Part shown: in pieces, positions 3,504-59,290 of the stretch
Position numbering within the stretch: the first letter of the stretch is position 1
Layout of the letters: the number at the start of each line of letters is the position of its first letter
Origin: Candidatus Saccharibacteria bacterium UBA6824
GTDB lineage: Bacteria > Patescibacteriota > Saccharimonadia > Saccharimonadales > UBA10212
Length of the DNA: 62,354 nucleotides
Direction: 5' to 3'
NCBI GenBank assembly: GCA_002452155.1
Contig: DKEK01000002.1
Location: forward strand, 1 to 62,354
The notes under the pieces: generated by a model
Told to the model about the DNA's origin: nothing
The model's input: only the letters and a program-made list of their open reading frames with translations
The model's database searches: none
Translations under genes and position numbers: made by a program

Positions 3504-4718
3504 ATGGAAATGGATTTTAAGCAACTGGCGATAGCCATTCGGACTATTGCCGAAGAAAAAAACCTGCCCGAAGACCAGGTGCAGGATATTGTCCAGCAGG
3601 CCCTGGCAGCCGCTTGGCGGCGTGATTACGGCGACCGTGAGCAAGAAGTCCGGGTGACGATGAATTTAAATACCGGCGAAGTTACGGCTTACGTCACTAA
3701 AGAAGTAGTCGACAAAGTGCAGGACGAGCATATGCAAATTAGCCTAGCGGCTGCCCAAGTTATCCGCAAGAACGCCAAAATCGGCGAAACGGTGGAGCTA
3801 GTCCAAAAGGTTGAGGATTTTGGCCGGGTGGCCGCCCAAACTGCCAAGCAAGTAATACTTCAGCGCTTGCGCGAGGCCGAGCGCGAAATTGTGTTGGCTG
3901 AATATGAGGATAAAATCGGCACCTTGGTTAATGGCATAATCAGCCGCGTCGAAGGCCGCGTAGTACGGGTCGAGCTTGGCCGCGCCCAAGGCATTATGCC
4001 CATTAGTGAACAGATTCAAGGCGAGCGTTATTACCCGGGCCAGCGACTTAAGTTTTTCCTTAAAAATGTCGAAAAAGAATACCGTGGCCCGCAGTTGATT
4101 GTCAGTCGCGGCGCCAAAGAATTTGTCGAGCAACTTTTCCGCGGCGAAGTACCGGAAATGAGCAGCGATGCCGTGGAAATTAAAGAAATTGCCCGCGAGG
4201 CCGGCGTCCGCAGTAAGATTGCTGTGGCCAGCAATGTCCAGGGCGTCGACCCGGTCGGTACCTTTGTCGGCGGTCACGGCACACGCATTAACGCCGTGCG
4301 CGATGAAATCGGCAGCCAGGAAATGATTGACATCGTGGTTTGGGATGAAACCCCAGCTACTTACGTAGCCAATGCCATGAAGCCAGCCAACGTTACCAAG
4401 GTTATTATTGGTAAGAGCGGCGGCAAGGCGACAGTTATCGTGCCGGAAGACCAGTTGAGTATTGCGATTGGCAAGGCCGGCCAAAATGTCCGCCTGGCCG
4501 GCAAGTTGACCGGCTATGAGCTGGACGTTGAGGGCGAAAAGGGAGCGGCTAAAGCCAAAAAAGAAGAAAAAGGGGAAGAAAAGGCTGAGGAAAAGGCAAA
4601 ACCGCCGGCGAAGGAAGAATCTGAATCCAAGCCGGTCGTCCAAAAATTGAAAAAGAAAACCGAACTGGAAGACTCGCTGCTGAAAGCCATCGAAGAACAC
4701 GGCACTGAAGATAGCTAA
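3504..4718 (+). CDS. nusA: Transcription termination/antitermination factor NusA, with a K/E-rich C-terminal tail
   Basis: N-terminal domain, S1 and two KH regions are recognisable (LIVSRGAKEFVEQLF, IAVASNVQGVDPVGTFVG, SIAIGKAGQNVRLAGKLTG). The last ~70 aa are low-complexity K/E/A. Confidence 0.95.
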   Translation: MEMDFKQLAIAIRTIAEEKNLPEDQVQDIVQQALAAAWRRDYGDREQEVRVTMNLNTGEVTAYVTKEVVDKVQDEHMQISLAAAQVIRKNAKIGETVELVQKVEDFGRVAAQTAKQVILQRLREAEREIVLAEYEDKIGTLVNGIISRVEGRVVRVELGRAQGIMPISEQIQGERYYPGQRLKFFLKNVEKEYRGPQLIVSRGAKEFVEQLFRGEVPEMSSDAVEIKEIAREAGVRSKIAVASNVQGVDPVGTFVGGHGTRINAVRDEIGSQEMIDIVVWDETPATYVANAMKPANVTKVIIGKSGGKATVIVPEDQLSIAIGKAGQNVRLAGKLTGYELDVEGEKGAAKAKKEEKGEEKAEEKAKPPAKEESESKPVVQKLKKKTELEDSLLKAIEEHGTEDS

Positions 4719-11586: not shown

Positions 11587-14454
11587 CTAGTCGTTGCGGT
11601 GGCCGCCACCCTGGCCGCCGCTAGGGGTTCCACCGCCGGGTGTCACCGGCGCCGGTGCGCTGTAAACGATAGTCGCCGGGTCGCTGGTGGTATCATAGAG
11701 CACACTATCAATCACCTGGGCGGTCACGGTGTGGCTGCCGGCCGCTACCGTATAGCTGAAGCTGCGGCTGGCCGGTGAGTCCGTTAGGTCGTTATAGGTT
11801 TTAACCACCGCGCCGTCGACCGTAAAGTTGATAGTACCGGGAAATTGCGGGTAATTGCCGTCACTGAAGGCATGGCTGCCGGCAGAGGCGGTGGCCGTGA
11901 GGGTAAAAGTACCATCTTTATTATCGGTAGTGGTAAGAGTTATAGCCGGCTTGGCGTCGTCGCAGAGGTGGACGTCATCGGCCGTGCTGGTGCCGGCACT
12001 TGCTGCCCCGCTGCCAAAGAAGATATCGGCCGAGAACCGCTCGGCTGAGCTGTTGGCGCTGGTGGTCTGCTTGGCCAGGGGCGGCGTACAGTCGGTAGCC
12101 AGTTTATTACTGACTTTATCGGTATTCGTGCTGGTAGTAGGTGCATTTTTGGGTTTATACCATGATGGGAAGAGGTCGGTGCTGGGACTGGGCTCGACCG
12201 AACCGATACCGACGTGGCTGGTGACCACAAAAGCCGGCAGATGCTGGATGCCCGGCGGCTCTGTCCAGTTGACCGCCGGACCCGGGACGGTGTCCAGTGC
12301 GGCGTACATCATATTGCGCGTCAACGGGGCCGTCATGTATTCCATAAAGCCCGACAGGGCCCGCTCGCGGTTGTGGTAGCCGACCCAGCTGCCAACGGCG
12401 TACTGGGTGTTCCAGCCCATCATCAGACCGTCGAAACCATTGTTAGTGGTGCCGGTCTTGACGCCGCTGTTCCAGCCCTTATAGCGATGCCATTTGTAAA
12501 ACCCGGCCGGCAGGTAGCTGGCGTTCGGGTCGGAAGCCATGTTGTTGACAATGTAGGCTGTCTCGGCCTTGATAACTTGCTGGGGCTTGGGCTGCTTCCA
12601 CTCGTAAATGGTCTTATTGGCGGCGTCGTGGATTTTGAGGATATAGGTTTGAGGGATAGCTTGGCCCATGCGCCCGAGGGAGGCAAAGCCGTTAACATGT
12701 TGGTCTAGGTGAAAAAAGGCGCCGTCGCCAATGGCCGCCGCGCCATAACACTGGGTTTTTTGGGTCAGCGCCGTGTCGCCGTAGCAGTTGTAGGCACCCG
12801 GGGCGTTCATTAGGCTGTCGGCTAGATTAATCGTCTTGTCGACGCCGACAATCAGCATAGCCTTAACGGCCGGGATGTTGCGCGAGCCGCCCAGGGCATA
12901 ACGCAGGCTCAGTGGGCCGGGGTTGCGAAAATCATAATCCTGCAGGCAGTTACTGTTGCCTTTGGGCGGCGGCGAACCTTTGATAGTGCAGGGGTAGCCC
13001 GGTATCGGGCCCTGCTGGTCATAAAGTACCGAGCCGGCGCCGGCGGTGGTAGTATTTTCAATCAGCGAGGCGTAGTCATAGGGCTTGAAGCTGGAGCCGG
13101 GGGCGATTTTAACTTCATGGGCATAATTGAGCTGGCCGTGGTCGGGATTAGTGAAATCAACACCGCCAACTAGGGCCACCATTTGGCCGGTTTTGACGTC
13201 TTCCGTCACCAGAGCCTGCTCGTCGGCGCCGTAGCGCCGGACGTTAGACTGGTTGTCGGCCACAATTTTTTCGGCTTTATTTTGCAAATTCATATCAAGC
13301 GTGGTGATAACTTTCCAGCCGCCAATTTTAGTCGAGCCGCCACCGCCGGTTGGCACGAACTTATTGCGCAGTTCATCCTTGGCCGCCAGCACAAAATAAG
13401 GTGATTTAATACCTGCATATTTGGTCGTTTGGGGCTGGATCTCGGCCAGCACATCAACCTTTTTGGCGGCTTCTGATTGGGCTTTGGTGATTTTGTGCGA
13501 TTGCTCGAGTACATCCAAAATGTAATGCTGGCGGCCAGTCAGTGCCTGTTTGTCAAAATCGGGGCTGTAGGGCGAGTAAATCGCCGGGGATTTAGGAATA
13601 GAGGCCAAGAAAGCGGCCTCGGCCAGTGTCAAATCCTTAACCGGCTTGCGAAAATAGTCGGCCGTGGCAGTTTGGGCGCCGTAGTCAACGCTGCCGTAAG
13701 GCGCGGCGTTTAGGTAGCCGGTTAGAATCTCGTCCTTGGTGTATGTCCGCTCCAACTCGACGGCTAAGATGATTTCTTTAATTTTGCGGGCGATGCTGCG
13801 CTGGTTAGTCCAGTTTTCGTTGATCTTGACCAGCTGCTGGGTAATCGTCGAACCGCCCTGGGTACCATTTCTTTTGAAGACATCATTAAGAGCCGCCCGG
13901 CCAATGCCCTTAACGTCAAAGCCGCGGTGTTTGTAAAAATCACGGTCTTCTATGGATACGGTGGCGTCTTTGAGGTATTGGGACATGTCACTGCTGGCTA
14001 TCGGCACCCTTTTTATGGCGTCGTAATCCTGCCACAGCAACGTCTGGCCGGTGCGGTCGTAATAACTAATACTGCCGCCCAGTTTGCTGCCGGAAATATC
14101 TTTAATATTCGGCAAATCTTTGCGGAAAAAGGCAAAAACGCCAAGTGTCAGTATAAAAATGGCGACAATCGCCAGACCCAGAATTTTAAGGCCCATGATG
14201 GCGCCGTCGCGGCTAAGCCAATACTCGGCCCAATTGCGTGGATCCAGGTGCCACAAGACCCTTTTGAACCTGGATTTAGGCAAACCGCTCAGGCGGTGGA
14301 CTTTGCGCAGTGATTTGCCTTCTTTCATCGCTGTCCAGCGTTCGCCCAAGCTGCGATTGACCTTAAGCACCCGACCGCTGCGTGTTGTGACGTACTTGCC
14401 GGGACTGCGTCGCGCACGGCCACGGCTATACTTGCCCAAATCTTTTTTAGCCAT
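11587..14454 (-). CDS. Class A penicillin-binding protein (bifunctional glycosyltransferase/transpeptidase, PBP1A-like) with a long C-terminal extension
   Basis: 955 aa. GT51 motifs (SIEDRDFYKHRGFD, GGSTITQQLVK), transpeptidase SxxK (PGSSFKP) and KTGT (VKTGTT). The C-terminal ~200 aa is an Ig-like/G-rich tail. Its stop codon abuts the stop of the convergent 10585-11586 gene with 0 nt between them. Confidence 0.92.
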   Translation of the reverse strand: MAKKDLGKYSRGRARRSPGKYVTTRSGRVLKVNRSLGERWTAMKEGKSLRKVHRLSGLPKSRFKRVLWHLDPRNWAEYWLSRDGAIMGLKILGLAIVAIFILTLGVFAFFRKDLPNIKDISGSKLGGSISYYDRTGQTLLWQDYDAIKRVPIASSDMSQYLKDATVSIEDRDFYKHRGFDVKGIGRAALNDVFKRNGTQGGSTITQQLVKINENWTNQRSIARKIKEIILAVELERTYTKDEILTGYLNAAPYGSVDYGAQTATADYFRKPVKDLTLAEAAFLASIPKSPAIYSPYSPDFDKQALTGRQHYILDVLEQSHKITKAQSEAAKKVDVLAEIQPQTTKYAGIKSPYFVLAAKDELRNKFVPTGGGGSTKIGGWKVITTLDMNLQNKAEKIVADNQSNVRRYGADEQALVTEDVKTGQMVALVGGVDFTNPDHGQLNYAHEVKIAPGSSFKPYDYASLIENTTTAGAGSVLYDQQGPIPGYPCTIKGSPPPKGNSNCLQDYDFRNPGPLSLRYALGGSRNIPAVKAMLIVGVDKTINLADSLMNAPGAYNCYGDTALTQKTQCYGAAAIGDGAFFHLDQHVNGFASLGRMGQAIPQTYILKIHDAANKTIYEWKQPKPQQVIKAETAYIVNNMASDPNASYLPAGFYKWHRYKGWNSGVKTGTTNNGFDGLMMGWNTQYAVGSWVGYHNRERALSGFMEYMTAPLTRNMMYAALDTVPGPAVNWTEPPGIQHLPAFVVTSHVGIGSVEPSPSTDLFPSWYKPKNAPTTSTNTDKVSNKLATDCTPPLAKQTTSANSSAERFSADIFFGSGAASAGTSTADDVHLCDDAKPAITLTTTDNKDGTFTLTATASAGSHAFSDGNYPQFPGTINFTVDGAVVKTYNDLTDSPASRSFSYTVAAGSHTVTAQVIDSVLYDTTSDPATIVYSAPAPVTPGGGTPSGGQGGGHRND

Positions 14455-14545
14455 AAATTCTGCTCATCATTATACCAAACTATCGTTCGTCAAATACCCG
14501 TTAAGGTATACTATTATTAATGAAAATTATGCTGAGAACCGCCTG

Positions 14546-15790
14546 ATGAAACTAAACCAAGATTTGGTCTGGCGGGGCCTGATAAAAGATAATACCTTCG
14601 CTGATGCCTCTTGGCTGGATAAGCCGCAGACTTTTTACCATGGCGTAGACGCCAGTAGCGATAGTCTGACTATTGGCAACTTGGCGGCGCTGTTGCTGGC
14701 CCGGCGCTTAAGCGCTGCCGGCTGGAAAGCGGTACTGCTGGTCGGCGGCGCCACAAGCCTGATTGGCGACCCCGGCGGCAAAGTCGCCGAACGGAAGCTT
14801 AAAACCCCTGAAGAAGTTTCGCGCAACGTCGAGGCTATCAAAAAACAGGTGTCCCAGATCTTCGCCGGCGAGTCTTTCATTCCGGCCGACAACTATGACT
14901 GGTTTTCCGGCGTCAAATACCTCGATTTTTTGCGCGACATCGGCAAGCACTATTCCATGACCGAACTGATGCAGCGCGATTTTGTCACCGAGCGCATGGG
15001 TGAGGGCGGCAGCGGTATCAGCTACGCCGAATTCAGCTACTCGCTTATCCAAGGCTATGACTACTGGCAGTTGTACAAAAGACACAAGGTAGTGCTGCAA
15101 ATTGGTGGCTCTGACCAGTGGGGCAACATGCTTTCGGGCGTGGCGCTTGTCCGTAAAAAGGAAAGCGCCGAGGTTCACGCTCTTTCCATGGCCCTAGTCG
15201 TCAACCAAGAAACCGGCCAAAAGTTTGGCAAATCTGAAGAAGGTGCTATCTGGCTTGATCCCAAAAAGACCAGCCCGACCCAGTTTTACCAGTTCTGGAT
15301 CAATGTCGATGATGCCGACGTCGAAGATTATCTGAAGGTCTTCACATTCCTGCCCAAAGCGGAAATAGAGCGGGTTAGCGCAGAGCACAAAGCCAGTCCT
15401 GCAAAGCGTGCAGCCCAAAAGGCTCTGGCCGAAGAAGTGACGAAGATCGTCCACGGCGGCGACCAGAGCGACACTGCCGGCGGCGTGACAAAATACTTAA
15501 CAGGTCAAGCATCTTTGACTGAGGCAAACCATGAAGAGCTTGATGAAATTCGCAAAGAACTACCCTCGGCAAAAGTTGCCGCCGGCAGCTCGGTCATTGA
15601 CGCGCTTATGGAAACTGAACTGGCTGCTTCGAAGTCTGAGGCTCGGCGTTTGCTAGCTAGCGCCGCGGTCTATATCAACGGCCAAAGCACCGATCAAGAT
15701 AATTTCAAGGATGGTAATTTTCAAAACGGCCGCCTGCTACTGCGCCGCGGCAAAGCCCACAAAGACTCGGCTCTGATAGAATTAAAGTAA
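14546..15790 (+). CDS. tyrS: Tyrosine--tRNA ligase
   Basis: Start moved to the ATG at 14546 (MKLNQDLVWRGLI...). Aligns by eye along its whole length to Bacillus-type TyrRS (GGATSLIGDPGGK, LQIGGSDQWGN, KFGKS, C-terminal S4-like domain). The HIGH signature reads TIGN. Confidence 0.93.
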   Translation: MKLNQDLVWRGLIKDNTFADASWLDKPQTFYHGVDASSDSLTIGNLAALLLARRLSAAGWKAVLLVGGATSLIGDPGGKVAERKLKTPEEVSRNVEAIKKQVSQIFAGESFIPADNYDWFSGVKYLDFLRDIGKHYSMTELMQRDFVTERMGEGGSGISYAEFSYSLIQGYDYWQLYKRHKVVLQIGGSDQWGNMLSGVALVRKKESAEVHALSMALVVNQETGQKFGKSEEGAIWLDPKKTSPTQFYQFWINVDDADVEDYLKVFTFLPKAEIERVSAEHKASPAKRAAQKALAEEVTKIVHGGDQSDTAGGVTKYLTGQASLTEANHEELDEIRKELPSAKVAAGSSVIDALMETELAASKSEARRLLASAAVYINGQSTDQDNFKDGNFQNGRLLLRRGKAHKDSALIELK

Positions 15791-16557
15791 TGGTTAAAAC
15801 AAAAACCAAAAAAACGGTAAGGAAAGCCGACCATTACGACGACCCTAGGTATAACTATCAGGACTATTGGACGGGTCGTGAATACGAGCACGCGGCCGAA
15901 GAGATGGCTATTAAGCGTCTGCTGCGGGGTAAGAAATTTAAGCATGCGATTGATGTCGGCGGCGGCTACGGCCGTTTGAGTAAATTCCTAACTAAATATG
16001 CCGATAAGGTGACTCTAGCCGAGCCCAGCCAGCAGCAGCTGGATATGGCCAGGATTTATCTCAAAGGCGCAACCCAAGTTGACCACAAATTGCTCCAGGC
16101 AGCTGATCTGCAGATGCCAGCCGGCTCCGTTGACCTAGTATTAGTTGCACGCGTTCTGCATCATTTGCCCGACCCCGTGCCGGAATTTAGCGAAATCGCT
16201 CGTGTGCTTAAGCCTGGCGGCACTTTTTTGCTGGAATTCGCCAATGACGCCCACTTCTTAAACCGCCTGCGCTACGGTGTCCGGGGCAAAAAAGTGCCTA
16301 AAAAGCCGGTGGATATTAGCACTAAAGCTGACCCCAAGATTCCCTTCGTCAACCATCACCCCAAGACTATTATTAAACTGCTGCACGACGCCGGCTTTGA
16401 AGTCGAGGTGGCGCTTTCGGGCTCTAACCTGCGCTCGCCGACGCTCAAGCGAATATTTGGTAAAAACGTCCTACTAGGTGTTGAAAAGGTCCTACAGCCG
16501 ATGCTGGCGCCGCTGTATTTTGGCCCCAGCGTCTGGCTAAGACTCAGGAAGCGCTAA
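15790..16557 (+). CDS. Class I SAM-dependent methyltransferase
   Basis: Motif I IDVGGGYGRL and post-I/II blocks (LVLVARVLHHL, LKPGGTFLLE). ATG overlaps the tyrS stop (TAATG). Confidence 0.8.
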   Translation: MVKTKTKKTVRKADHYDDPRYNYQDYWTGREYEHAAEEMAIKRLLRGKKFKHAIDVGGGYGRLSKFLTKYADKVTLAEPSQQQLDMARIYLKGATQVDHKLLQAADLQMPAGSVDLVLVARVLHHLPDPVPEFSEIARVLKPGGTFLLEFANDAHFLNRLRYGVRGKKVPKKPVDISTKADPKIPFVNHHPKTIIKLLHDAGFEVEVALSGSNLRSPTLKRIFGKNVLLGVEKVLQPMLAPLYFGPSVWLRLRKR

Positions 16558-51757: not shown

Positions 51758-51766
51758 TACCTCTTT

Positions 51767-51838
51767 ACCCAGCACCTAGGTCCGAGATCATCCACCTCTG
51801 GTGGATATTTGCGAAGCACTCGGCTCTAGGTGCTGGGT
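51767..51838. repeat. 72 nt palindromic element (copy 1) in the secY-infA spacer
   Basis: 13 bp perfect arms ACCCAGCACCTAG / CTAGGTGCTGGGT, inner CCGAG/CTCGG pairing, and an apical hairpin ATCCACC-tct-GGTGGAT. Related by eye to 58117-58184. Confidence 0.8.
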
Positions 51839-51867
51839 TGACAACAGATAGGCCTCTCTGTTAATAT
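51838..51867 (+). promoter_or_regulatory. infA promoter TTGACA-N18-TAATAT
   Basis: TTGACA at 51838-51843 (its first base is shared with the palindrome arm) and TAATAT at 51862-51867. Confidence 0.5.
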
Positions 51868-57184: not shown

Positions 57185-57469
57185 ATGTCCAACGAACATC
57201 AGTCTTTTTTTCGCGAAAATTCAGGCGCACCCGACAGACAAACTATCTTTGTGGGTCGGCTTGTTATGATGCACCAAGCAATGACCGACCCTCATACACC
57301 AACAATAGACACTAACAACGAAAAGCTTAGTGATGAGAGAAAAAAAGTTACGGCTCAAGCAATTACTGAAGTCTTGGTAACCTTTGACTTGATGTGGCCG
57401 GAATGGAGAAAATTTGATACTGGTCTTGCGCAGAGAGTGGGTGAAATTATAGGCGGGGATGAAAACTAA
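57185..57469 (+). CDS. Hypothetical protein, 94 aa
   Basis: Open frame starting 2 nt after the trpS stop and overlapping the next gene by 11 nt. No recognised motif. Confidence 0.4.
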   Translation: MSNEHQSFFRENSGAPDRQTIFVGRLVMMHQAMTDPHTPTIDTNNEKLSDERKKVTAQAITEVLVTFDLMWPEWRKFDTGLAQRVGEIIGGDEN

Positions 57470-58412
57470 ACCCCGGGAGTTTAAAACAGAACCGGAGGAT
57501 ACCGGTACTAGAGCCGATATTTTTTTGGCTCAAAATTACCCGGAGTTTACGCGCTCGTCGCTAGAGCGACTTTTTGATGATGGTTATGTAACTATTAGCA
57601 AAAGAGCCATAAAGCCCAGCCATAAGCTAATAGCCGGGGAAAAGGTGTCTGTGGACGAGAAAGTCTTGCGTAAAAAACCGCCGGCTATTAAACTACCGGT
57701 CATTTATGAAGACGAAGACGTTATTGTTATGGACAAACCGCCTGGTGTGCTGACGCACGCTAAGGGTGCGCTCAATCTTGAAGCTACCGTAGCCAGTTAC
57801 ATTAAAGATAAAATCACTGACCCGAAGTTAGGCGGAAATCGGGCGGGCATCATCCATCGCCTAGACAGGGCTACAAGCGGCGTGATAATTACAGCCAAGA
57901 ACGAAACAGCCCAAAGATGGTTGCAAAAACAATTCTCTACCCGAAAGGCTAACAAAACCTATCTAGCAATAGTGGAGGGGGTACCGGCGCAGCTGGAGGC
58001 GATCATTGACGCACCGGTTGAGCGCAACCCAAAAAGACCTCAGACTTTTAGGGTCGGGGGCGCCGGTAAACCGGCACAAACAAGATACAGGGTATTAAAA
58101 AAACTTAACAGGCCTGCCCCGCACCAAAACCTGAGCGGAGCAGTCGGTAATCGGATTGCGAAGCGTCAAGTTCTTGGTGCGGGGTCAAGCAACCTATACT
58201 CGCTACTTGAGCTAAACCCGCGAACTGGCCGGACGCACCAGCTTAGAGTGCATCTAAAATACATAGGGCATCCGATTGTTGGCGACAATGTTTATGGGCA
58301 TGGCGATGACAATATGTACCTTCACGCTAAGTCACTTGAAATTACGCTGCCCGGCGGCCAGAGAAAAAAATTTGAAGCCCGGATGCCAAAAATATTTAAG
58401 GAAATCAAATAG
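57459..58412 (+). CDS. rluD: RluA-family 23S rRNA pseudouridine synthase (RluD-like) carrying an in-frame insertion of about 27 aa
   Basis: S4-like N-terminus, catalytic HRLDRATSGVII, TGRTHQLRVH and HPIVGDNVYG. The extra segment NRPAPHQNLSGAVGNRIAKRQVLGAGSSNL sits between the conserved YRV and LLEL...TGRTHQ blocks. Confidence 0.9.
   Translation: MKTKPREFKTEPEDTGTRADIFLAQNYPEFTRSSLERLFDDGYVTISKRAIKPSHKLIAGEKVSVDEKVLRKKPPAIKLPVIYEDEDVIVMDKPPGVLTHAKGALNLEATVASYIKDKITDPKLGGNRAGIIHRLDRATSGVIITAKNETAQRWLQKQFSTRKANKTYLAIVEGVPAQLEAIIDAPVERNPKRPQTFRVGGAGKPAQTRYRVLKKLNRPAPHQNLSGAVGNRIAKRQVLGAGSSNLYSLLELNPRTGRTHQLRVHLKYIGHPIVGDNVYGHGDDNMYLHAKSLEITLPGGQRKKFEARMPKIFKEIK
58117..58184. repeat. 68 nt palindromic element (copy 2) embedded in frame in the pseudouridine synthase CDS
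   Basis: 11 bp perfect arms CCCCGCACCAA / TTGGTGCGGGG. Shares CCCnGCACC arms and the internal GGAT..TTGCGAAGC block with the element at 51767-51838. Confidence 0.7.
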
Positions 58413-59290
58413 TGAGAAGTCTGCTGCTCCACGAGATTACCCGCCTGCAAGTCGAAGCTTTCGTCAACATGCCGTCGCATGGCCTTTTGATAACCGGCGA
58501 CGTCGGCACCGGGAAAGCCCACTTAGCAAAGACTCTGGCTGCTGTGCTGCTGGGCCTACAAAAAGACCAGCGGTTGCAAAATTACCCATACTTCACCCAC
58601 TTAAAGCGGCCCGAAGGGAAGCAGGATATTCCAATAGATTCTGTGCGCCAACTGAATAAGCTGCTGAAGCTTAAGACTCCCGGCACCCAAGTTGTCAGAC
58701 GGGTCATTCTTATAGAAAACGCCCAGGATCTAAACGAAGAATCTAGCAGCGCCCTGCTAAAAATGCTGGAAGAGCCGGCGACTGACTGTGTTTTTATACT
58801 CACCGCCACTTCGGCGCGCGCCTTACTACCCACAATCAGTTCTAGAACTCAGCAACTGCATATACGCCCAATAAGCCTGCCGCAGTCACTAAAATTTCTG
58901 GAAGGTACTTACGGCCGGCCCGACATTGAAAGTGCATGGCGCTTGAGCCAGGGCGGCGTAGGCCTAATGCTAGCTATCTTACATGATGATAAAAACCACC
59001 CGCTTAAAGCCGCCATTGACCAAGCCAAGGATTATCTGCGCAAGGATAACTACCAACGAGCATTGATGGCCGATTCACTGAGCCGTGACAAAAAGCAGCT
59101 AGGGCTTTTGCTGGAGGCCTTGGTCAAGCTGCTAGGGGCGCTTCAGTATTCCGGGCTCAAGAGCGGGAAGGGATCAAACCAAAAGAAACTGCTCACTAGC
59201 CGCAAGCTAGTTCATAAGCTTCAAAAAGCCCTGGAGGCCAACGCCTCGCCCAAGCTTATAGCGCTGGAACTATCCCTTTACTTGCTATAA
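58412..59290 (+). CDS. holB: DNA polymerase III subunit delta'
   Basis: HGLLITGDVGTGKAHLAKTLAAVLLG, SSSALLKMLEEP and SRTQQLHIRP motifs. GTG start overlapping the previous stop. Confidence 0.85.
   Translation: MRSLLLHEITRLQVEAFVNMPSHGLLITGDVGTGKAHLAKTLAAVLLGLQKDQRLQNYPYFTHLKRPEGKQDIPIDSVRQLNKLLKLKTPGTQVVRRVILIENAQDLNEESSSALLKMLEEPATDCVFILTATSARALLPTISSRTQQLHIRPISLPQSLKFLEGTYGRPDIESAWRLSQGGVGLMLAILHDDKNHPLKAAIDQAKDYLRKDNYQRALMADSLSRDKKQLGLLLEALVKLLGALQYSGLKSGKGSNQKKLLTSRKLVHKLQKALEANASPKLIALELSLYLL

Follow-up and report, generated by a model that had tools for sequence, protein, structure and literature searches.

Positions 58113 to 58184 of contig DKEK01000002.1 from Candidatus Saccharibacteria bacterium UBA6824 hold, with a probability of roughly 0.85, a copy of a mobile, non-autonomous hairpin repeat of 72-73 nt from Saccharibacteria (Saccharimonadales), which lies in frame in the gene rluD, is a recent arrival and is polymorphic between strains. 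By the window we mean the whole stretch of 62,354 nucleotides that was analysed. The host gene, the inserted unit (the core), the parts of its hairpin and its flanks have these positions:

57459 to 58412, forward strand: coding sequence (CDS) of an RluD-type 23S rRNA pseudouridine synthase, 317 amino acids, the host of the insertion (open reading frame, PF00849, structure match).
58113 to 58184, forward strand: palindromic repeat element, the core, 72 nt or 24 codons, residues 219-242, peptide PAPHQNLSGAVGNRIAKRQVLGAG (empty site in locus L025, 72-nt skip in a contig of metagenome run X5, 93.4 bits with a covariance model).
58117 to 58127, forward strand: 5' arm of the outer stem, CCCCGCACCAA (exact reverse complement of TTGGTGCGGGG; compensatory changes over 65 distinct copies).
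58174 to 58184, forward strand: 3' arm of the outer stem, TTGGTGCGGGG (exact reverse complement of CCCCGCACCAA; covariation).
58130 to 58137, forward strand: inner box CCTGAGCG, 5' side of the inner stem (invariant in the alignment of copies; its TGA closes one sense frame).
58140 to 58159, forward strand: apical stem-loop GCAGTCGGTAATCGGATTGC, peptide AVGNRI (the variant common to all in-frame intragenic copies; U:A to C:G covariation at columns 31/61).
58162 to 58170, forward strand: inner box AGCGTCAAG, 3' side of the inner stem (read in another frame in the copies of L001 and L002).
58104 to 58112, forward strand: left target flank CTTAACAGG, codons L N R (this type of 9-mer also precedes many other copies).
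58185 to 58193, forward strand: right target flank TCAAGCAAC, codons S S N (a short imperfect palindrome together with the left flank).

The limits of the core are set by an orthologue that lacks it. The empty rluD of L025 reads AAC AGG/TCA AGC AAT where the window has AAC AGG/72 nt/TCA AGC AAC (slashes mark junctions), and the inserted unit is therefore 58113-58184, exactly 72 nt or residues 219-242. A preliminary description of this region had instead given a segment of 68 nt and an extra peptide of about 27 amino acids; that peptide took in the native flanking residues N, R, S, S, N and L, and the insert proper has 24. Its account of the arms holds: they are perfect inverted repeats over 11 nt (a repeat finder stretches them to 16 nt at 88%). 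The reading frame is, as it had said, preserved, 72 nt being 24 codons, and runs through the insert as AAA CTT AAC AGG CCT GCC CCG CAC CAA AAC CTG AGC GGA GCA GTC GGT AAT CGG ATT GCG AAG CGT CAA GTT CTT GGT GCG GGG TCA AGC AAC. The peptide stretches derived from the insert are LNRPAPHQNLSGAVGNR, IAK and QVLGAGSSNLYSLLELNPR; the peptide of the family is APHQNLSGAVGNR.

An alignment of orthologues, proposed earlier as a way of judging strain specificity, shows that most RluD proteins lack the insert, and so does a strain that is about 97% identical to the window. A 600-nt contig of the permafrost-metagenome run X5 covers 57995-58110 and 58183-58500 with 13 differences over 434 nt and joins 58110 directly to 58183; it thus skips 72 nt exactly, with the junction ambiguous by a GG. 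The element is retained in another RluD contig of that run.

The palindrome belongs to a dispersed family. Two RluD orthologues with about 63% protein identity, L001 and L002 (GCA_002177075.1), bear it at the same site, and the boxes common to these and the window gave the pattern CCAANNCCTGAGCG-N18-36-AGCNTCAAGNNNTTGG, with which 185,579 GTDB species-representative genomes were scanned. There were 20 exact matches in 19 genome stretches, all from metagenome-assembled genomes (MAGs) of Saccharibacteria/Saccharimonadales. Some genomes have several copies on different contigs (five in ASO77, three each in RIFCSPHIGHO2_12_FULL_47_16b and NC_groundwater_137), and the flanks of the genome copies are unrelated to one another. 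Metagenomes yielded 56 further stretches with the same exact pattern, likewise of Saccharibacteria type and with unrelated flanks. Viral contigs scanned in this way had no match, and a phage as the vector was rejected for this reason.

A covariance model (R1), a tool that the preliminary description had suggested for finding further copies, was built from 22 copies and scores 72 copies at 49-102 bits. Over the 65 distinct copies, 97.3% of the pair cells are standard pairs and 11 of the 22 pairs change on both sides; none of 500 shuffles reached these pairing measures, and slid controls fall to about 40% paired. For the window copy itself, a stretch of 82 nt folds at -44.1 kcal/mol compared to -26 +/- 2.9 kcal/mol for dinucleotide shuffles (z = -6.28; 0/200 shuffles equal) and its opposite strand folds equally well. 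In Rfam 15, only tRNAs pass the gathering score in the window, and the sub-threshold matches at 58060-58240 (searched to E 10) all have E >=1.6. Hammerhead, twister, pistol, group II domain V, K-turn, attC and signal recognition particle-like motifs were compared with the conserved boxes by eye and none fits.

Besides rluD, the element is found inside the ORFs (open reading frames) of four other protein families: ApbE (L059 and L048), RNase HII (L070), Sua5/YrdC (L028, identical to L051) and 5-formyltetrahydrofolate (5-formyl-THF) cyclo-ligase (L035). In every interrupted gene the Pfam match spans both sides of the insert, and analysis of the spanning ORFs shows that the intragenic copies have one orientation and one frame, with the peptide xAPHQNLSGAVGNRIxExQVFGAG. 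This sense frame 0 (CYT GCC CCG CAC CAA ...) is free of stop codons in 58 of 62 distinct copies with the exact pattern, where random 72-mers would give about one third. Sense frame 1 is shut in all 62 by the TGA of CCTGAGCG, a box whose invariance is partly imposed by a search pattern that demanded it. The uniformity of the intragenic frame argues that the insert is translated rather than spliced out.

To judge from the sequences, the conserved entity is nevertheless the nucleotides, as DNA or RNA, and not the peptide, with translation acting as a constraint. The box AGCGTCAAG is read K-R-Q-V in the window (GCG AAG CGT CAA GTT) and S-V-K-S in L001 and L002 (TCG AGC GTC AAG AGT in L002), and in these two loci the frame is restored by a difference of +2 nt in the apical stem and a bulge of +1 nt in the 3' arm.

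The host ORF is a member of the RluA/RluD family (PF00849 PseudoU_synth_2, Pfam), the catalytic motif HRLDRATSG (HRLD..TSG) is visible in its translation, and its relatives, from Candidatus Saccharibacteria/Saccharimonadales, bear the name 23S rRNA pseudouridine1911/1915/1917 synthase in their sources. It matches the E. coli RluD structures 1v9f/7bl5 with E = 2.8e-37: host residues 14-215 and 247-282 align with residues 15-217 and 221-256 of the E. coli chain, so that 31 host residues stand opposite three, about 28 of them extra. The insert thus indeed lies between two blocks that are close to each other in the E. coli protein. Among 24 orthologues this site is hypervariable, with inserts of many lengths; LNKSSN is the commonest form and the window has LNR-PAPHQNLSGAVGNRIAKRQVLGAG-SSN. 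In an AlphaFold model of the host protein (mean pLDDT, the predicted local distance difference test score, 80.7), values below 50 are limited to residues 219-243 and 280-282, the first stretch spanning the insert, between strands 207-217 and 246-255. The insert, for which a surface loop had been considered, is modelled as a disordered stretch projecting from a beta-hairpin tip, directly upstream of TGRTHQLRVH, and the insertion is probably neutral for RluD activity.

Copies at the RluD site do not share a simple line of descent. The window copy is 94% identical to the copies in ApbE (L059) and Sua5 (L028), and to those at the RluD site of L001 and L002 only 61-64%; in a neighbour-joining tree, insert-bearing RluD proteins are scattered among empty ones. 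One ancient insertion, vertically inherited, was rejected as the sole explanation on account of these identities and of the near-identical empty strain. In the syntenic loci L005, L014 and L015 the element is present in different intergenic gaps. The soil runs X1-X3, which hold the window sequence, each have another contig at the same depth with a copy in other flanks (...GTCTAACAAGGC/...); the paired depths are 23/23.7, 7.09/6.56 and 5.3/6.07, which means that the source genome has at least one further copy outside the window. Taken together with the 72-nt skip in X5, these data indicate that the RluD loop is one hot spot with repeated gain and loss or decay, and that the family is mobile, or recently was. 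Decayed or rearranged inserts are present at the same RluD site in L003, L023, L024, L082 and L083. The L024 insert (659-733, RluD of P0003) has the outer arms of the core (CCCCACC...GATGGGG) with a mini-palindrome, AAAAATACTTAACTAGTCAAGTATTTTT, replacing the centre, so that the nesting described below is reciprocal.

The bases next to the core are biased: over 62 copies, position -1 is G in 48, position +1 is T in 35 and position -4 is C in 33. At least 13 of the 62 have the flank type CTTAACAAG/.../TYAAGYA, and the longer context of these, (GAA)ATACTTAACAAG/core/T[CT]AAG[CT]A[AT]TT, is itself an inverted repeat. On sequence grounds the RluD site, CTTAACAGG/TCAAGCAA, resembles this short palindrome, which the element repeatedly occupies elsewhere; the core was found at its centre (ATACTTAAC AAG/TTAAGTAT) as well as at stem/loop boundaries of tRNA arms. 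The short palindrome also occurs solo, with 18 matches to a regular expression in the fetched loci and 11 under a stricter exact pattern, and the solo cases include the RluD site of L082 and L083 (EILDLLSIS, ILNELSIS). This mini-palindrome of about 26 nt, ATACTTRAC-NNG-TYAAGTAT, is itself dispersed (for example L018 5434, L051 8073 and 9301, L077 6398). The window has one such solo palindrome:

15493 to 15512, forward strand: solo short palindrome ATACTTAACAGGTCAAGCAT inside tyrS (ORF 14084-15790), with 16 nt (CTTAACAGGTCAAGCA) in common with the core-free RluD site.

It has one mismatch, at an expectation of 0.05 chance matches per window with <=3 mismatches, and may be an unoccupied target. 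Presumably it adds no residues compared to E. coli TyrRS. Gene conversion or a process like that of uptake signals are possibilities for the spread of the mini-palindrome into coding DNA without a change in length.

At tRNA sequences, the core is found in sense orientation at the boundary between T-stem and T-loop of 3' fragments (L017, L033, L039, L076 and one contig of run X9), at a junction ACRGG/TTCAAAT that is similar to ACAGG/TCAAGC in RluD, and in antisense orientation in the D-loop of a 5' fragment (L013, L076). The positions are L017 6168-6370, L076 about 1493-1760 on the reverse strand, L039 1100-1250, L033 825-1000 and L013 1070-1200. An intact tRNA adjoins the fragment in L017 (Val-GAC) and L076 (Thr-GGT); on the 3.4-kb contig of L039, no intact tRNA-Thr was found. 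A reading as interrupted tRNA genes was rejected: removing the core in silico in L013 and L017 gives no additional tRNA, indicating that the tRNA pieces are partial duplicates.

Most copies of the family lie between genes, in either orientation to these and often at a distance of 4-40 nt from a gene end; of the copies sampled, only about 10% are intragenic. The recurrent neighbours are housekeeping genes such as alaS (10 independent loci, L005, L014 and L015 among them), dnaJ (6 loci) and ftsA. The element next to alaS is either at a hot spot or an old copy that was kept vertically; in L015 it occupies the gap upstream of alaS, some 12-15 nt ahead of the start codon. Where the element is at a gene start, a copy of the ribosome-binding site, the ATG and the initial 6-8 codons (20-45 nt) stands on each side of it. 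This was seen at L020 4560-4920 (dnaJ), L021 2738-2977 (mutM/fpg), L021 1440-1620 (a HAD-like gene) and at dnaJ in L054, L060 and L068, the dnaJ arrangement being present in four genomes. Such copies are sometimes in tandem (units of 109 and 115 nt) and leave the gene intact, accompanied by one or two pseudo-starts whose reading continues into the element. In some genomes the element has runs of heptamers (AATTGAT/AATTGAA, GGTAAAT) on both sides (L004 650-900 and 1750-1900, L010 3700-3880, L014 1380-1540, L047 and L053), which suggests slippage or a larger composite repeat.

A unit of 24 codons with a nearly always stop-free frame 0 neither shifts nor ends the frame of its host when inserted in that phase, and this, we propose, is how the gene survives it. 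In rluD it entered between codons 218 and 219, in the turn of the beta-hairpin just before TGRTHQLRVH, and would be translated as a disordered surface loop of 24 residues that leaves the catalytic core intact. The window copy would be evolutionarily recent and is still polymorphic in the population, and the RluD loop would be an insertion hot spot that was struck independently in different lineages. Mobilisation would occur in trans, by an enzyme acting on the hairpin.

Several points weigh against a mobile, translated repeat. Translation, as opposed to removal from the mRNA, is predicted from the conservation of frame and stop codons, with the disordered loop of the model as further indirect support; a search for RNA runs that contain the locus listed none. 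The polymorphism was drawn from assembled contigs, and insertion and precise excision look the same. No clear target-site duplication was found: the RluD junction has just the G/GG ambiguity, in L005, L014 and L015 the spacers have diverged too far for filled and empty sites to be aligned, and the long duplications (20-45 nt) that flank some copies consist of gene starts or tRNA parts with irregular geometry. No ORF for a transposase or other mobilising enzyme was found beside any copy when ORFs of >=100 aa were clustered over the 75 loci, which gave only housekeeping families. The set of copies was gathered with an exact 24-base pattern, which makes conservation look inflated, and strong conservation across distant genomes could mean a function for the host and not selfish spread. 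Finally, junctions fall into a hairpin loop in 63% of cases compared to 54% in controls, which is not significant, and reconstructed sites fold no better. For this reason we go no further than to infer, from the flanks, a targeting that is specific for sequence or structure.

A function for the host is the first alternative. The hairpin could be a cis-acting RNA or DNA structure that regulates rluD or its operon, by way of mRNA stability, processing, pausing or attenuation, and would be repeated because it serves the host, for example as a protein-binding site. It does have a very stable fold on both strands, compensatory changes maintain its structure, and sense-strand G-U pairs are frequent (columns 33/59, in 63 of 65 copies). 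Copies in different genomes are a median of 85% identical and those in different genes up to 94%, while orthologous genes reach 65-78%. Several copies are 4-40 nt from gene ends inside operons, and positions recur, as at alaS and dnaJ. However, a regulator of rluD would hardly be absent from a strain of about 97% identity and from most RluD orthologues, stand in both orientations to flanking genes, occupy different gaps in syntenic loci and match nothing in Rfam. It also interrupts the genes of five unrelated enzymes, each time in the stop-free frame, which points to translation rather than regulation as the source of the constraint. We consider a regulatory element unlikely.

Even less probable is that the 72 nt are an intervening sequence, intron-like or cut out as directed by the hairpin, so that RluD is made without the 24 residues. 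Archaeal Cbf5 pre-mRNA introns demonstrate that introns of hairpin type are possible in genes for pseudouridine synthases, and those copies that interrupt tRNA-like sequences, in the D-loop or where T-stem and T-loop meet, would otherwise be destructive. These tRNA-like pieces are, however, the partial duplicates described above, and Rfam has no match to a ribozyme or intron family. Independent intragenic copies would not have to share one orientation and one stop-free frame if they were spliced out; likewise, the compensating indels of +2 and +1 in L001 and L002 and the in-frame state of the decayed remnants in L023 and L024 would be needless. That the insert is an ordinary lineage-specific loop selected as a peptide, with its palindromic DNA incidental, or else an assembly chimera, is the most improbable alternative, given that, for all the hypervariability of this hairpin turn with its inserts of many lengths, conservation of the nucleotides persists when the reading frame differs, dozens of copies lie outside genes, identical contigs were assembled in three independent runs (X1-X3), and the 72-nt indel is exact.

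The core can be compared to several known systems of repeats. Rickettsia palindromic elements (RPEs) are palindromic repeats found in frame inside protein genes, according to the account of Ogata et al. (2000 Science 290:347; 2002 Genome Res 12:808) given in PMC10969869. On that account, the core shares with RPEs its dispersal as palindromes in a host-dependent bacterium with a small genome, its presence both between genes and in frame in unrelated housekeeping genes, the conserved inserted peptide, the insertion in a surface-exposed part that is compatible with the fold, and presence or absence between related genomes. The preliminary description had called the insert RPE-like, and the many near-identical copies amid unrelated sequence, the insertions into four further protein families and the exact 72-nt strain indel bear this out. 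Of the outcomes that it had named as speaking against this, a loop in all orthologues without palindromic DNA or a scan without further copies, neither occurred. There are also differences: the phylum here is Saccharibacteria, of the Candidate Phyla Radiation (CPR); no sequence relationship was seen, RPE sequences themselves not having been part of the comparison; and about 10% of the sampled core copies are intragenic, compared to nearly half in some RPE families (PMC10969869). The core measures 72-73 nt and RPEs about 100-150 bp (PMC10969869), which speaks against membership in the Rickettsia families proper. The core also has the recurrent flank CTTAACAAG/TYAAG and the association with fragments of tRNA T- and D-arms. 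We know of neither feature for RPEs.

MITEs (miniature transposable elements with inverted repeats) can form in-frame fusions too, for example intragenic ERIC, large BOX, QMITE1 of Coxiella and the Anabaena MITEs (PMC10969869). Like these, the core is small, non-autonomous and structured, has terminal inverted repeats (arms of 11-16 nt here), varies in copy number and occasionally fuses with an ORF in frame. Unlike MITEs, which have terminal inverted repeats around an unrelated centre, it is one long hairpin, and neither a parent insertion sequence (IS) or transposase nor a clear target-site duplication was found in its loci. Repetitive extragenic palindromic sequences and their compound forms (REP/REPIN) are hairpin repeats mobilised by RAYT transposases, tagged at one end by an unpaired GTAG or CGTC and by definition extragenic (PMC3733652). 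The core resembles them in forming hairpins, in being mostly extragenic, near gene ends and conserved within a lineage, and in the GTAG of many copies (GGAGTAGTC). In contrast to REPs, this GTAG is internal, base-paired and covarying (U:A to C:G, columns 31/61), and the window copy has GCAG; the core measures 72 nt compared to 20-40 nt for a REP palindrome, it enters ORFs, and the loci that were fetched showed no RAYT gene.

Palindromes can also be targets: IS1397 and ISKpn1 insert in the loops of E. coli palindromic units, and IS110-family elements insert in REPs. The position of the core, central in a short palindrome and where stem and loop of tRNA arms meet, recalls these elements. They are, however, autonomous and have transposases, whereas here tiny non-coding palindromes are guest and target alike, and the test for hairpin loops gave no significant result. 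Repeats like these were not found described for Saccharibacteria or CPR in a full-text literature search, in agreement with the preliminary description, which was aware of none. To our knowledge and as far as this search went, elements of this known kind had not been described for the phylum, and the core is a new family of them.

The window has a further palindrome, to which the preliminary description had likened the core (then given as 51767-51838):

51762 to 51841, forward strand: 80-nt hairpin between secY and infA, outside the core family (fold z = -6.4).

The likeness did not hold up. A leave-one-out search with nhmmer does not link this hairpin to the core family (E = 16), and R1 gives it 19 bits on the forward and 17 bits on the reverse strand, all from the arms, compared to 49-102 bits for true members. 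It has a relative of its own in another Saccharibacteria contig, L056 8390-8470 (E = 4e-12), with a compensatory change in the apical stem; hairpin and relative share with the core the arms CCC-GCACC/GGTGC-GGG and TTGCGAAGC. Syntenic L002 lacks the hairpin, its secY and infA being only 48 nt apart. That the window has two copies of one family was rejected on these scores and on the separate relative; judging by sequence, the hairpin is best regarded as a second repeat family, at most a distant sister subfamily of the core. Three further inverted repeats of the window (I6 16219-16298, I7 13638-13724, I5 3605-3755), with arms of 12-16 nt and spacers of 54-123 nt, do not score with R1.

A broader reading, which we offer tentatively and hold to be rather less probable than its contrary, is that Saccharibacteria harbour nested palindromes that target structure: the core would insert at the centre or stem-loop boundary of the mini-palindrome ATACTTAAC-NNG-TTAAGTAT and of tRNA T-arms and D-arms, and the mini-palindrome can in turn sit inside the arms of the core, as in L024. 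Essential genes would survive such hits either by virtue of the stop-free 24-codon cassette or by the duplication of the gene end alongside. If this is true, nested palindromes would imply a hairpin-directed mobilisation without conventional target duplication, in genomes of about 1 Mb with few known mobile elements, and the RluD loop would be a repeatedly hit 'landing pad'.

For practical work, the element accounts for odd 'extra loops' in proteins of Saccharibacteria and is probably behind breaks between contigs and mis-assemblies of MAGs; the exact 72-nt indel can serve as a strain-level marker. The covariance model and the target motif define a substrate with which the mobilising enzyme may be found. 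Genomes of CPR/Patescibacteria are tiny, gene-dense and thought to be poor in mobile DNA. A palindrome that is conserved, present in many copies and compatible with coding, and that enters their housekeeping genes, carries behaviour known mostly from Rickettsia over to an unrelated lineage with reduced genomes. It suggests that selfish repeats can generally persist in genomes short of intergenic space by being tolerated in frame.

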